IMG/VR virus record: IMGVR_UViG_3300031823_000001
Location: 1 to 64,000 of that record
Source of the DNA: a virus
DNA length: 64,000 nucleotides
Reading direction: 5' to 3' (one strand)
Each line of letters begins with the position of its first letter. Position 1 is the first letter of the stretch. Below, piece by piece: positions 60,670 to 64,000 of the stretch. A model generated the notes under the pieces. The model was given only the letters and a program-made list of their open reading frames with translations, was not told the origin of the DNA and ran no database searches. The position numbers were made by a program, and so were the translations under genes.

Positions 60670-61026
60670 ATGAAGGAAATGAATCTCAGCAAGACGACCG
60701 TGAAGATCATAGATATCTTCCTGGAGGACCCGCAGGCGCCCCGGTACGGGTTCGAGCTGATGAAGCGCATCCACCGGGGCGCCGGCACGGTGTACCCGAT
60801 CCTCGCGGACCTGACGTCAGCCGGATGGCTGGACCGGAACCGGGAGGACGCCGCAGCCCTGGACAGGCCGCCGCGCATCTACTACACGCTCAGCGCCGGG
60901 GCAGCGGCCTACCTGGCCGCCCGGGTCATAGCGATGGCCGGAGACTCAACAGCGGAACACCAGGCGGCCCGAGCCGGAATCGAACCGGCGCCCTACCGCT
61001 TAGGAGGCGGTCGCTCTCTCCCCTGA
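60670..61026 (+). CDS. PadR-family winged-helix regulator, leaderless
   Basis: RYGFELMK....GTVYPILA.L...GWL...RIYYTLS; TACACT-N6-ATG. Confidence 0.8.
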   Translation: MKEMNLSKTTVKIIDIFLEDPQAPRYGFELMKRIHRGAGTVYPILADLTSAGWLDRNREDAAALDRPPRIYYTLSAGAAAYLAARVIAMAGDSTAEHQAARAGIEPAPYRLGGGRSLP

Positions 61027-61037
61027 GCTACCGGGCC
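60965..61037 (-). tRNA. tRNA-Arg(CCU)
   Basis: Cloverleaf; loop CT-CCT-AA; GGTTCGATTCC. Confidence 0.9.
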
Positions 61038-61186
61038 ATGAGGTAAGCAGTAATCCATGCGAGCACCGAGACGACGGCAGCGAGAACGCACACCAGTTGG
61101 TACCCGTACATGCCCATGACGGCAGACGTAGCGGCGGAAGCCGACCCGGTGAAGACATAGGACACTACCTGCTGGAGCTTGTTCAC
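61028..61186 (-). CDS. Possible small two-TM peptide between tRNAs
   Basis: MNKLQQVVSYVF...YQLVCVLAAVVSVLAWITAYL. Confidence 0.4.
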   Translation of the reverse strand: MNKLQQVVSYVFTGSASAATSAVMGMYGYQLVCVLAAVVSVLAWITAYLMAR

Positions 61187-61200
61187 AGTGCTGATCGTAG

Positions 61201-61272
61201 AGGCGGAACGGGGGATCGAACCCCGGTAATGCGCTTTGCAGGCGCATGCCTGAACCACTCGGCCATACCGCC
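61201..61272 (-). tRNA. tRNA-Cys(GCA)
   Basis: Loop CT-GCA-AA; U73. Confidence 0.9.
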
Positions 61273-61273
61273 G

Positions 61274-61411
61274 TGGGTGCTCCCCCGTCCTATCCGCCAG
61301 GACCGGGGCCCTGGTTTTCCCTTCATCCGGCCATAGCATGTCTGAAAGCTTCGGGGACTGCTCAGGGGGCTGTTGTAACCGGGGTTGGACTACCGGCGAC
61401 CTGGGGTGCAC
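61274..61411 (-). ncRNA. CCA-ended tRNA-like RNA of unknown identity (138 nt)
   Basis: 5' GTGCACCCC pairs with 3' GGGGAGCAC-CCA; T-arm-like GTCCT-GGCGGAT-AGGAC; fills the gap between two tRNAs. Confidence 0.55.
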
Positions 61412-61412
61412 G

Positions 61413-61486
61413 TGCGCCTGGAGGGACTTGAACCCCCGGCCTCGCCCTCCGGAGGGGCGCGCTCTTTCCTGCTGAGCTACGGGCGC
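61413..61486 (-). tRNA. tRNA-Arg(CCG)
   Basis: Loop CT-CCG-GA. Confidence 0.9.
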
Positions 61487-61487
61487 A

Positions 61488-61574
61488 TGGAGGCGACACC
61501 TGGTGCCGGCCCAGGTCTGTCCGCGAGGACGGCGGATTTACAGTCCGCTGGGCGTGCTGCCGCCCACTGCCGCC
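61488..61574 (-). tRNA. Atypical tRNA-Tyr(GUA)
   Basis: GCGGA-CT-GTA-AA-TCCGC, long variable arm, encoded CCA; T-loop GCCGGCA and no D-loop GG. Confidence 0.7.
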
Positions 61575-61577
61575 ATT

Positions 61578-61739
61578 TGGCGCGAGCCCCTGGATTCTGC
61601 CAGGACTCCTCCGGGTGGAACCGGAGCGTGCTGTCCGGGGACGTTATCCATGGTTTCGTCCCCTTCGCATCGAGGTCCCTGTCCAGTCAGGCCCGTGCGC
61701 ACGGACCTGGCCGGAGCCGGCCTCTTACACCAGACTCGC
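61578..61739 (-). ncRNA. CCA-ended tRNA-like RNA with about 90-nt structured D-loop insertion
   Basis: Acceptor GCGAGTC/GGCTCGC-G-CCA; anticodon-like arm CTCCG-GTTCCACC-CGGAG; T-arm CCTGG-CAGAAT-CCAGG. Confidence 0.65.
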
Positions 61740-61740
61740 G

Positions 61741-61813
61741 TAGGCAATGACGGACTTGAACCGCCGACCTCTCCGGTGTGAACGGAGCGCTCTTCCAACT
61801 GAGCTAATCGCCC
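61741..61813 (-). tRNA. tRNA-Val(CAC)
   Basis: Loop TT-CAC-AC. Confidence 0.9.
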
Positions 61814-61814
61814 T

Positions 61815-61891
61815 TGGGGTGAATGACGAGGCTTGAACTCGCGACCTCCGGTACCACAAACCGGCGCTCTGCCGACTGAGCTACACCCACC
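61815..61891 (-). tRNA. tRNA-His(GUG)
   Basis: G-1:C73, loop TT-GTG-GT, encoded CCA. Confidence 0.92.
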
Positions 61892-61950
61892 ATGAGGACG
61901 ACGGGGGACTGAGCCCGAAGGCGGTGTCAGCCTGCTCACCTGTCGTCCAG

Positions 61951-62023
61951 TGCGGGCGGAGGGACTCGAACCCCCAACACGATGCTCCGTAGGCACCAGC
62001 TCTATCCATTGAGCTACGTCCGC
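61951..62023 (-). tRNA. tRNA-Arg(ACG)
   Basis: Loop CT-ACG-GA. Confidence 0.9.
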
Positions 62024-62061
62024 ATTAACGGGGCGGTCCCCAGGTGCCGCCGGGGACCGCT

Positions 62062-62140
62062 AAGAGGAGGCAGGGCTCGAACCTGCAATGCGTGGGCTGG
62101 CATCCCGCGCGCCAACGTCTACCAATTCCGCCACTCCTCA
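62062..62140 (-). tRNA. Atypical or pseudo tRNA, anticodon ambiguous (GCC or CGG)
   Basis: Leu-like D arm TGGCGGAATTGGTAGACG, canonical T arm GCAGGTTCGAGCCCTGC, irregular anticodon arm. Confidence 0.55.
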
Positions 62141-62144
62141 CCCG

Positions 62145-62217
62145 TGGGCGTACCTGGGATCGAACCAGGGACCTCTTCCGTGTCAGGGAAACGCGCGTTC
62201 CGCTGCGCTACACGCCC
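62145..62217 (-). tRNA. tRNA-Val(GAC)
   Basis: Loop CT-GAC-AC. Confidence 0.9.
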
Positions 62218-62299
62218 AGATACCGCAGCCTGTTCAGTCTCAGGTCCGTCCCCGGAGGGATGCGAGTCCCGGGCCTAGGCCCGGGAGGTCGCTGCGGCG

Positions 62300-62373
62300 C
62301 GGTCGTGACGGGACTCGAACCCGCGATCTCCTCCTTGACAGGGAGGTGAGCACTCCGTCTGCTCTGCACAACC
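62300..62373 (-). tRNA. tRNA-Asp(GUC)
   Basis: Loop CT-GTC-AA; G73; C at position 8. Confidence 0.88.
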
Positions 62374-62450
62374 ATGCCTGCTGCACCTTGGCGTCGGTGC
62401 TTCCCTCCCCGGACGGCCCGGGTGGTGTCGGAGCGTGCAGGACCGCTCGG

Positions 62451-62522
62451 CTCCGGTACCTGGACTCGAACCAGGAGGCGCGGATTAACAGTCCGCTCGT
62501 TTACCGATTAACGGACACCGGA
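62451..62522 (-). tRNA. tRNA-Asn(GUU)
   Basis: Loop CT-GTT-AA; G73. Confidence 0.88.
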
Positions 62523-62703
62523 ATGGTTCCCCGCTTCCGGTCAGCAGTGCGGGGAGAACTGCGTTCCGAAGACCACCGGGAGCGACCCGGTGCCGACCTT
62601 GCCCTTTCTGAGAGCCGGCCGGGCCAGGGCCGGTGGACGGCCAGGCGGTAGCGTTCTGCCTCCCTTACACCCGGGCGTAAAGGCGCTAGGCCTGTCTCTC
62701 TCG

Positions 62704-62776
62704 TAGCGGAGGCAGGACTTGAACCTGCGACCTCTGGGTTATGAGCCCAGCGAGCTACCGGCTGCTCCACTCCGCG
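62704..62776 (-). tRNA. Initiator tRNA-fMet(CAU)
   Basis: C1:U72 mismatch, three G-C pairs in the anticodon stem, CT-CAT-AA. Confidence 0.92.
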
Positions 62777-62891
62777 TCGTGCTCCCAGGGTATCCCGGGA
62801 GGTATCTGTCTCGCACCTGCGAATTTCAGCCCACCAGTGCAAGCGCCCGGATGCCGTAAGAGGGCCGTCCTCTCGCTCCGGCATCCCCAGG

Positions 62892-62963
62892 TGGCCCCAG
62901 ACGGTTCCGACCCGTCTTCTCCTGCTTGAAAGGCAAGCGGCCTAGCCATTGGCCGATGGGGTC
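62892..62963 (-). tRNA. tRNA-Glu(UUC), variant T-loop
   Basis: Loop CT-TTC-AA; T-loop GTCGGAA; A2:C71 mismatch. Confidence 0.8.
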
Positions 62964-63009
62964 TAGAATGTTACTCGCCGAGTCGGCTGACAACACCTAT
63001 ACTTAATTC

Positions 63010-63414
63010 ATGAACACCACCACTCAAGGAGAAATAAGCGAAGGCCACGTCATCGCGCACCTACTGAAGCGCGGCTACGCCGTGTCCATACCATTCGGTA
63101 ACAACCAGCGATATGACCTTGTAATCGATGACGGAAGCCATTTGTGGCGAGCCCAGACAAAAACAGCTCGGCTAGAAAAGGGCTGCCTGGTGTTCAATTG
63201 CAGCAATAACGGATACAAGGGCGTACGCAAGACGTATCAGGGGCAGATCGACCTCTTCCTGATCTACAGCCCACACACAGATAAGGTCTATCGGGTACCC
63301 ATCGAAGCAGCTACTGTCACGTCGATGATGCTGCGTATCGACCCGACCAGGGCAGGGAGCCCCAAGTCACCGAAGCATCCGATCAAGTGGGCTAGCGACT
63401 ACGAGCTGACCTGA
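63010..63414 (+). CDS. PD-(D/E)xK homing endonuclease (group I intron-associated, I-Ssp6803I-like family), free-standing
   Basis: GEISE..VIAHLLKRGY.VS.PFG.NQRYDLVID...RAQTKT; low GC; TATACT-N6-ATG. Confidence 0.85.
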   Translation: MNTTTQGEISEGHVIAHLLKRGYAVSIPFGNNQRYDLVIDDGSHLWRAQTKTARLEKGCLVFNCSNNGYKGVRKTYQGQIDLFLIYSPHTDKVYRVPIEAATVTSMMLRIDPTRAGSPKSPKHPIKWASDYELT

Positions 63415-63415
63415 G

Positions 63416-63490
63416 TGGTCCCGACGGGATTCGAACCCGTGTCAGTTGGTTGAGAACCAACCATCCTGAACCTGACTAGACGACAGGACC
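63416..63490 (-). tRNA. tRNA-Glu(CUC)
   Basis: Loop TT-CTC-AA. Confidence 0.9.
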
Positions 63491-63578
63491 ATGTTCCGCA
63501 CGGCTTGACCGACCGCCGGAGAGCACCCGGGGCTAGCAACCGGGTTCACGGGGCCGTCTTTAAGCGCGGCCGTTCAAG

Positions 63579-63651
63579 TGCGCCATGAGGGTCTCGAACC
63601 CTCGGCCAGCCCCTTAGAAGGAGGCTGCTCTGTCCGCTGAGCTAATGGCGC
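63579..63651 (-). tRNA. tRNA-Arg(UCU)
   Basis: Loop CT-TCT-AA. Confidence 0.9.
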
Positions 63652-63660
63652 AGATGCTAG

Positions 63661-63733
63661 TGGGCCGCCAGGGGATCGAACCCTGAACCCGTCGGTTAAA
63701 AGCCGACAACTCTGCCGATTGAGTTAGCGGCCC
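63661..63733 (-). tRNA. tRNA-Lys(UUU)
   Basis: Loop CT-TTT-AA. Confidence 0.9.
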
Positions 63734-63784
63734 GCGATCGGTATTCGCCGGGCCTGTTTCTCGTACATGTTTTCTCCGTCCCGG

Positions 63785-63857
63785 TGGGCCGTGTACGGAT
63801 TGAACGCACGACTCTCACCTTATAAGGGTGCCACTCTTACCACTGAGTTAACGGCCC
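63785..63857 (-). tRNA. tRNA-Ile(UAU)
   Basis: GGGCCGT acceptor, loop CT-TAT-AA, A73. Confidence 0.85.
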
Positions 63858-63862
63858 CTGAG

Positions 63863-63935
63863 TAGCGGTAGAGGGGATCGAACCCCCGACAACCCGATCA
63901 TGAGTCGGGCGCTCTGCCGACTGAGCTACACCGCC
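63863..63935 (-). tRNA. tRNA-Met(CAU), elongator type
   Basis: GGCGGTG acceptor; loop CT-CAT-GA (G37). Confidence 0.85.
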
Positions 63936-64000
63936 ATGGCGCACCCGGGGTCCCTCACAGCCTCCTGGCGAGCCAGGCTGCCGACCTACCCATCCGGTCG

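Follow-up and report, generated by a model that had tools for sequence, protein, structure and literature searches.

RNA genes that are not transfer RNAs (tRNAs) but are set among the tRNA genes of a phage form a class that has been known since T4 and T5. Phage T4 produces RNAC and RNAD (species 1 and 2 RNAs), small RNAs from its tRNA region whose role is unknown (PMC3014915) and which Northern blots confirmed as late RNAs (PMC9697503). The record of phage T5 (NC_005859.1) lists RNAI, RNAIII, RNA1, RNA2 and RNA3 as misc_RNA; these are 70-170 nucleotides (nt) long, are not tRNAs and lie directly against tRNA genes. RNA1, RNA2 and RNA3 are labelled tRNA-like or putatively so, some with the words 'tRNA-like stable RNA with unknown functions', and the recorded sequences of RNAI and RNA3 show a closing stem followed by a terminal CCA. 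A tRNA-like module with a 7-base-pair (bp) acceptor-like stem, cut by RNase P and completed by addition of CCA, is present in M. smegmatis YrlA (PMC4201824), and RNase P cleavage of a non-tRNA substrate is reported to depend on RCCA (PMC12710915). The usual reading of a phage tRNA cluster is a set of tRNAs for codon supply or anti-defence, with the spacers left out of account. Here we describe a tRNA operon whose spacers include conserved RNA genes. It begins in the window analysed, positions 1-64,000 of IMGVR_UViG_3300031823_000001, which is the complete, terminally repeated 161,740-bp record of an uncultured soil phage. The operon holds a hidden tRNA-Tyr (element B) and two new RNA families (elements A and C; Table 1).

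Elements A, B and C of the tRNA operon

At its default setting ARAGORN called 40 tRNA genes, all on the minus strand between genome positions 60963 and 68798, an operon of ∼7.8 kilobases (kb). These calls serve 19 amino acids, with Tyr alone missing. No sigma-70-like promoter was found inside the window part of the array and terminators were not in excess there, so that one long polycistronic precursor fits. Searches of GenBank phages returned no close DNA relatives, just distant tRNA-level matches, and no protein matches for the neighbouring 780-amino-acid gene. Relatives were IMG/VR loci reached via that gene (65-91% protein identity), among which L005-L011 carry a syntenic tRNA array. Soil runs were used as assembled contigs, and parts of the stretch that they did not cover were given no weight; the best match to the phage was in a soil metagenome from which it may derive.

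A preliminary description of the window had grouped the three spacers as a single class of non-canonical tRNA-like RNAs, each ending in CCA close to the next tRNA. Checking the letters on the minus strand confirmed these ends and their coordinates: CCA lies at 61276-61274, 61490-61488 and 61580-61578, respectively 1, 1 and 3 nt before the next tRNA. The single class did not survive comparison with relatives, and separated into a four-way-junction RNA (A), a tRNA-Tyr (B) and a tRNA-shaped RNA (C). We favour, with a probability of roughly 0.6, the reading that these are three unrelated RNA genes in one polycistronic operon: the tRNA-Tyr, the tRNA-shaped element C, which would act in trans, and the separate structured element A. 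Rfam 15 gave nothing over any of the three, either at the gathering score or at E<=10, on 64 kb, 3.2 kb or 476 nt of sequence, and no credible call over them came from the intron, mitochondrial or tmRNA (transfer-messenger RNA) modes of ARAGORN. Elements A and C are nevertheless conserved and covary in structure, and thereby escape the refutation by missing covariation or conservation that the preliminary description had set for itself. Its proposal that the array holds structured RNAs overlooked by tRNA finders is supported, for non-tRNA RNAs missed by both tools.

Element C was present in six contigs (the window, L005, L006, L007, L009 and L010/L011) at 70-91% identity, and is single copy in the genome. 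In all six its first nucleotide directly follows the discriminator base of the tRNA upstream, and its 3' end is G followed by CCA, placed 1-3 nt before the next tRNA except in L009, where the distance is 27 nt. The element occupies three different slots, after Val(CAC), Arg(ACG) or Arg(CCG), and in this it behaves like a gene that can move within the array. All 7 bp of its terminal stem form in every copy, and six of them covary as judged by RNAalifold and pair counts. A T-like arm of 5 bp, with a 6-7-nt loop that lacks UUC, abuts the 3' strand of this stem, and ∼95 nt in two hairpins are inserted at the D-loop position. The RNAalifold structure comprises a long hairpin, another hairpin whose invariant loop holds a 6-nt palindrome (ACCAUGG core), and a further hairpin with the invariant 6-nt loop UUCCAC, which becomes 8 nt if the closing G-C pair is opened. 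Across the alignment 93.5% of cells were paired and 18 pairs had changed on both sides; none of 500 shuffles reached these pair counts, and slid controls collapsed. Indels of 1 and 2 nt among the homologues exclude a coding explanation.

With the insert excised, the core of element C is 74-78 nt long. Its features would fit a tRNA with a large D-loop insertion, having an invariant U8, a possible 4-bp D stem, A14, A15 and A21, and a 4-nt variable loop ending in G-U. The acceptor stem, the discriminator and CCA are those of a tRNA, whereas a 7-nt anticodon loop and canonical T and D loops are lacking. Tools for finding tRNAs do not recognize it: neither Rfam nor ARAGORN matched the element, and ARAGORN at the relaxed setting -ps80 made no call even when the insert was excised in silico. 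Judged from its sequence, element C represents an undescribed family of conserved RNAs that have the shape of a tRNA and, in every copy, a GCCA end. For this spacer, the earlier proposal of a tRNA-like, non-canonical RNA with its own CCA is borne out by the conserved G73-CCA and the non-canonical T loop. No further copies were found with model R1. A pattern scan of IMG/VR returned the same contigs only, a metagenome pattern scan run for element C only returned one already known contig, and the pattern did not occur in the prokaryote genome set. Derivation of element C from the adjacent tRNA-Val(CAC) was considered and rejected, as the stem identity is confined to the window copy.

The minimum-free-energy fold of element B is a full type-II cloverleaf: the acceptor stem has 7 bp, the D, anticodon and T arms all form, and the variable arm is long. 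Its anticodon loop, C-U-GUA-A-A, has 7 nt with U33 and a purine at 37, and its 3' end is a discriminator U followed by CCA. The loops of the elbow are those in which it departs from canonical tRNAs: the T loop reads GCCGGCA and the D loop lacks GG. ARAGORN made no default call here and named element B Tyr(gta), at its exact coordinates, only at -ps80. Since this setting gives many false calls on both strands, the call counts only jointly with synteny. RF00005 gave no match even at E<=10 in 476 nt.

Synteny was consistent throughout. Every relative examined (six) carries a tRNA-Tyr(gta) in the matching slot, upstream of tRNA-Arg(CCG); ARAGORN called it by default in L005, L006, L008 and L009 and irregularly in L007 and L010. 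In the alignment 14 of 22 pairs showed compensatory changes. The T loop is normal in the relatives, with an intermediate variant, CUCGACA, in L008, and the combination of GCCGGCA with a D loop without GG is particular to this genome. A soil metagenome contig from another study carries element B with 3 differences over 88 nt; a 17-mer of the T arm matched unrelated coding DNA only. We take element B, on this comparative evidence, to be the tRNA-Tyr(GUA) of the phage, with helices and anticodon loop intact and a T/D-loop elbow that has drifted, and it is probably still functional. The tRNA set of the phage covers all 20 amino acids, and that standard tools miss its tRNA-Tyr is an annotation lesson. 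The idea that an odd elbow obliges such an RNA to encode CCA fails for this gene. CCA is encoded by four of the seven Tyr orthologues, including ones with canonical T loops, and L008, with its variant loop, has none; the encoded CCA therefore predates, and is independent of, the odd elbow.

Element A was found in four contigs (the window, L005, L006 and L008), scoring 114-142 bits with model R2. It has a closing stem of 9-10 bp with compensatory changes, a small hairpin, a composite arm and a covarying hairpin of variable length, together with long invariant junction sequences. The tail after the closing stem reads CCA, UCA, CCA and CCU in the four contigs, and UCA in a fifth relative from a soil run. 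With CCA in two of the four, no discriminator base and no conserved T-like arm, element A does not uphold its earlier description as a CCA-ended tRNA-like RNA; it is a conserved structured RNA that is not tRNA-like, and its CCA is incidental. Model R2 found no further copies, and an IMG/VR pattern scan gave the same contigs only. An 18-mer of element A had eight unrelated matches, in contexts unlike element A, where we estimate ∼17 by chance.

Two kinds of candidate structure were rejected. A 'top half of tRNA' in element A, made of a 5-bp stem and a 7-nt loop beside the closing stem, is paired in no copy other than that of the window, and it is the competing hairpin that covaries. Hammerhead, K-turn and box C/D motifs were sought in both A and C, and their key letters are not conserved.

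Table 1. Coordinates and strand of the elements, spacer modules and other features of the window
Feature	Position	Strand	Description
Element A	61274..61411	-	138-nt conserved four-way-junction RNA; starts directly after tRNA-Arg(CCG)
Element B	61488..61574	-	Divergent type-II tRNA-Tyr(GUA) with encoded CCA; cloverleaf fold, synteny, orthology
Element C	61578..61739	-	162-nt tRNA-shaped RNA; acceptor stem, G73, encoded CCA, T-like arm, two inserted hairpins
tRNA operon, window part	60963..64000	-	Most tRNAs with a C-A-U leader 5'
Hairpin module	61891..61949	-	59 nt; closing stem 1 nt after tRNA-Arg(ACG); z-score -2.2
'tRNA-Pro(cgg)'	62061-62141	-	81 nt; not a standard tRNA
Cloverleaf-shaped module	62218..62298	-	81 nt, without CCA; z-score -3.2; 4 homologues, 26 pairs, 4 with compensatory changes
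Spacer D	62523..62702	-	Between tRNA-Met and tRNA-Asn; string of hairpins, ends unpaired, z-score -0.55; its CCA is part of the leader
PD-(D/E)XK endonuclease gene	63010-63414	+	PF11645, E=1e-29; within the tRNA array
87-nt element	63491-63577	-	Five relatives have it too, between Arg(UCU) and Glu(CUC)
Spacer module E	63936..64000, continuing to genome 64020	-	Conserved three-way junction with covarying closing stem

The CCA signal and the other spacer modules

Across the whole array 5 of 40 tRNAs encode CCA. Among the 16 ARAGORN tRNAs read in the preliminary description tRNA-His alone does so, as was stated there. Where background predicts 1.65, 7 of the 30 spacers had a CCA 0-3 nt before the next tRNA. 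Much of the array, however, shares a leader: immediately 5' of the tRNAs C is found at -3 in 29/40, A at -2 in 27/40 and U at -1 in 25/40, with the same bias in the relatives, which presumably reflects a leader preference of RNase P. When C also stands at -4, this C-A-U leader gives rise to CCA followed by 1 nt, and from the leader counts we estimate that the leader alone predicts ∼4 such cases. The CCA signal thus exceeds chance only in part.

Retention across orthologous spacers separates the cases. CCA is kept throughout for element C (6/6) and mostly for tRNA-Tyr (4/7), but is not kept for element A (2/4). Two weaker cases had been proposed on the minus strand, at 62526-62524 and 63939-63937. 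The first has CCA in 2/6 orthologous spacers and at the second it is not kept; both are coincidences with the leader motif. In module E the first C of the 'CCA' sits within the closing stem, and the homologue in L008 shows compensatory changes in this stem and a different tail. The paired 5' and 3' ends attributed to these spacers hold for elements A, B and C and for module E, but not for spacer D.

Most long spacers are modules with a closing helix that starts at +1 or +2 after the tRNA, and several are kept in relatives, sometimes in other slots. The 59-nt hairpin module has an 83% identical copy in another slot of L008. The cloverleaf-shaped module has an invariant 25-nt 3' part. Spacers of two relatives contain extra pieces: L008 (6311-6400) has part of a tRNA, T arm included, and L007 (4933-5030) another folded module of ∼100 nt, which shows that modules turn over rapidly.

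The gene called tRNA-Pro(cgg) scored 27.1 bits, under the Rfam cut-off. Its D arm is of the Leu type and its T arm is normal, and one long stem replaces the anticodon and variable arms. The 7-nt loop of this stem has GCC in three homologues but GUC in L008, and ARAGORN names the gene differently in the relatives, in one form with a 4-letter anticodon. It resembles T5 RNA1 in having kept a Leu-like D arm.

The PD-(D/E)XK endonuclease gene ends 1 nt from tRNA-Glu(CUC) and is absent from the matching slot in relatives; it can be likened to the free-standing homing endonucleases of the T4 and T5 tRNA regions. A search through relatives of this gene was tried and was unhelpful. Beyond the window, frame breaks are visible in the tail tube and baseplate J genes (genome 75580-75610 and 89750-89770), and a short direct repeat flanks the tail tube break site on both sides. 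A link between these breaks and the loop of element C was looked for and none was found, nor any with the other RNAs described here.

Explanations for the three RNAs

From the observed anatomy, boundaries, structures, conservation, covariation and orthology we infer a processing route, stability and a function in trans for the products. RNase P would cut the 5' end of element C, directed by the 12-bp stack of acceptor and T-like arm plus RCCA, and the same cut would simultaneously make the discriminator-ended 3' end of the upstream tRNA, which lacks CCA. Exonucleases would trim the 3' end of element C back to the encoded GCCA. The product may be a stable tRNA mimic acting in trans, drawing its specificity from the invariant loops and not from a normal anticodon. 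Retention of GCCA might reflect an elbow so remodelled that the CCA-adding enzyme handles it poorly, or else a use of RCCA by RNase P when the substrate is atypical. No gene for a CCA-adding enzyme was found in the phage. Element A would be released passively by 3' processing of tRNA-Arg and 5' processing of tRNA-Cys, with its closing stem as protection. Only the invariant loops and junctions point to action in trans of A and C.

Several observations weigh against three functional RNA genes. The covariation rests on six sequences for element C and four for element A, all from one clade, and their shared ancestry inflates the counts. The tRNA-core columns of element C (U8, D stem, A14, A15 and A21) are invariant, so covariation cannot probe them, and RNAalifold favours in their place an extended neighbouring hairpin, one pair of which covaries. 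Element C is also absent from two related records in which the array or the genome is covered, and is hence dispensable. Folded on its own, element A gains no stability over shuffled sequence (z-score +0.34). The sole match to these RNAs in RNA libraries is one 215-nt soil contig, identical over 61200-61372, that spans the junction of A with tRNA-Cys; this contig shows neither ends nor strand and could come from DNA carry-over. The degenerate T loop of tRNA-Tyr, finally, could mark a dying gene.

A more specific version of trans action, which we regard as unlikely in this full form, makes element C a tRNA mimic in which a tRNA core and G73-CCA are retained and the elbow is replaced by the ∼95-nt domain. 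A host factor that handles tRNAs would recognize it, as a decoy or a regulator; the candidates are the ribosome, a synthetase and a defence enzyme that attacks tRNAs at the acceptor end or the anticodon loop. Element A would then be a second, independent trans RNA.

Alternatively, the modules might serve purely in cis, as punctuation or insulation: stable helices immediately following the CCA-less tRNAs would guide RNase P or RNase Z and keep the tRNAs beside them from misfolding, and the released pieces would do nothing further. Analogues are known from plant mitochondria (t-elements) and from MALAT1 (its mascRNA element). Consistent with such a role, nearly every long spacer opens its closing helix at +1 or +2 after the discriminator and ends a few nt before the C-A-U leader, the modules sit in different slots among relatives, and some relatives dispense with element C. 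Punctuation, however, needs shape only. Elements A and C keep long invariant single-stranded junctions and loops while their stems vary freely and the neighbouring protein is 66-87% identical, and the GCCA of element C is kept in L009 even though the next tRNA is 27 nt away. We therefore consider punctuation a doubtful account of A and C.

General decay is improbable; in that account the elements would be degenerating pseudogenes of tRNAs and hairpins arisen by chance in GC-rich spacers, with every CCA a coincidence of the leader. Such a coincidence does account for the CCAs at 62524 and 63937 and probably for that of element A, and only in this genome has tRNA-Tyr lost its T-loop consensus. 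Against such decay stand the covariation and invariant loops of A and C, as well as the five helices and the anticodon loop of tRNA-Tyr, all intact, and the recovery of that gene, with its 3 differences in 88 nt, from the soil metagenome of another study.

Very improbable is a chargeable element C, an unusual Gly-like tRNA (GCG acceptor start, UCC in an 8-nt loop) for non-standard decoding, for example of the interrupted tail genes: a 7-bp acceptor stem with G73-CCA, a 74-78-nt excised core, U at 33 and a purine at 37 of the loop taken as 8 nt, and the frame breaks in two tail genes would suit it, but the invariant G-C pair closes the loop to 6 nt, the T and D loops depart from those of canonical tRNAs, even -ps80 yields no ARAGORN call on the excised core, the acceptor covaries freely, pairs 1-72 and 2-71 included, the discriminator is G where bacterial tRNA-Gly has U, the phage has a normal tRNA-Gly(UCC), and the break sites show no obvious match with the loop.

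Comparison with described systems

The closest architectural parallels to element C are RNAs with a tRNA-like domain. It shares with that of tmRNA an acceptor stem, a T arm, an encoded CCA and the lack of a normal anticodon arm. In contrast to tmRNA, element C has an invariant G3-C70 in place of G3-U70, and no pseudoknots were detected. Its putative tag region varies by indels and stem covariation and holds no conserved tag frame. ARAGORN gave no default tmRNA call, its relaxed-mode calls were meaningless, and no Rfam tmRNA match was obtained. Given the invariant G3-C70 and the missing tag frame, element C is not a tmRNA.

YrlA (RF02553), a tRNA-like Y RNA of bacteria and phages, also carries a tRNA-like module. 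In element C, unlike YrlA, the acceptor stem is made of the RNA's own 5' and 3' ends and is not a Ro-binding stem. The Ro60/TROVE domain PF05731 is absent from the 161.7-kb genome, and RF02553 matches neither element A nor element C; what it did match were only pairs of adjacent true tRNAs, at E>0.6. Lacking both a Ro60 gene and an RF02553 match, element C is not a Y RNA.

With the stable RNAs of T4 and T5 the likeness is one of genomic setting, known here from sequence: the non-tRNA genes lie inside the tRNA cluster, abut tRNAs and are co-oriented with them. T4 RNAC and RNAD are likened to A and C by their location in the tRNA region, and not by structure or homology. Sequence or model similarity to T5 is missing (model R1 finds nothing in the T5 tRNA region), and host phylum and architectures differ. 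Element C stands apart from the T5 RNAs in its 7-bp acceptor stem and in the large insertion at the D-loop position; it keeps a tRNA-like acceptor end with CCA and drops parts needed for decoding. Families with such clear boundaries provide testable substrates for RNase P, the CCA-adding enzyme, synthetases and defence nucleases, and could help to explain the stable RNAs of T4 and T5, a question of 50 years' standing.

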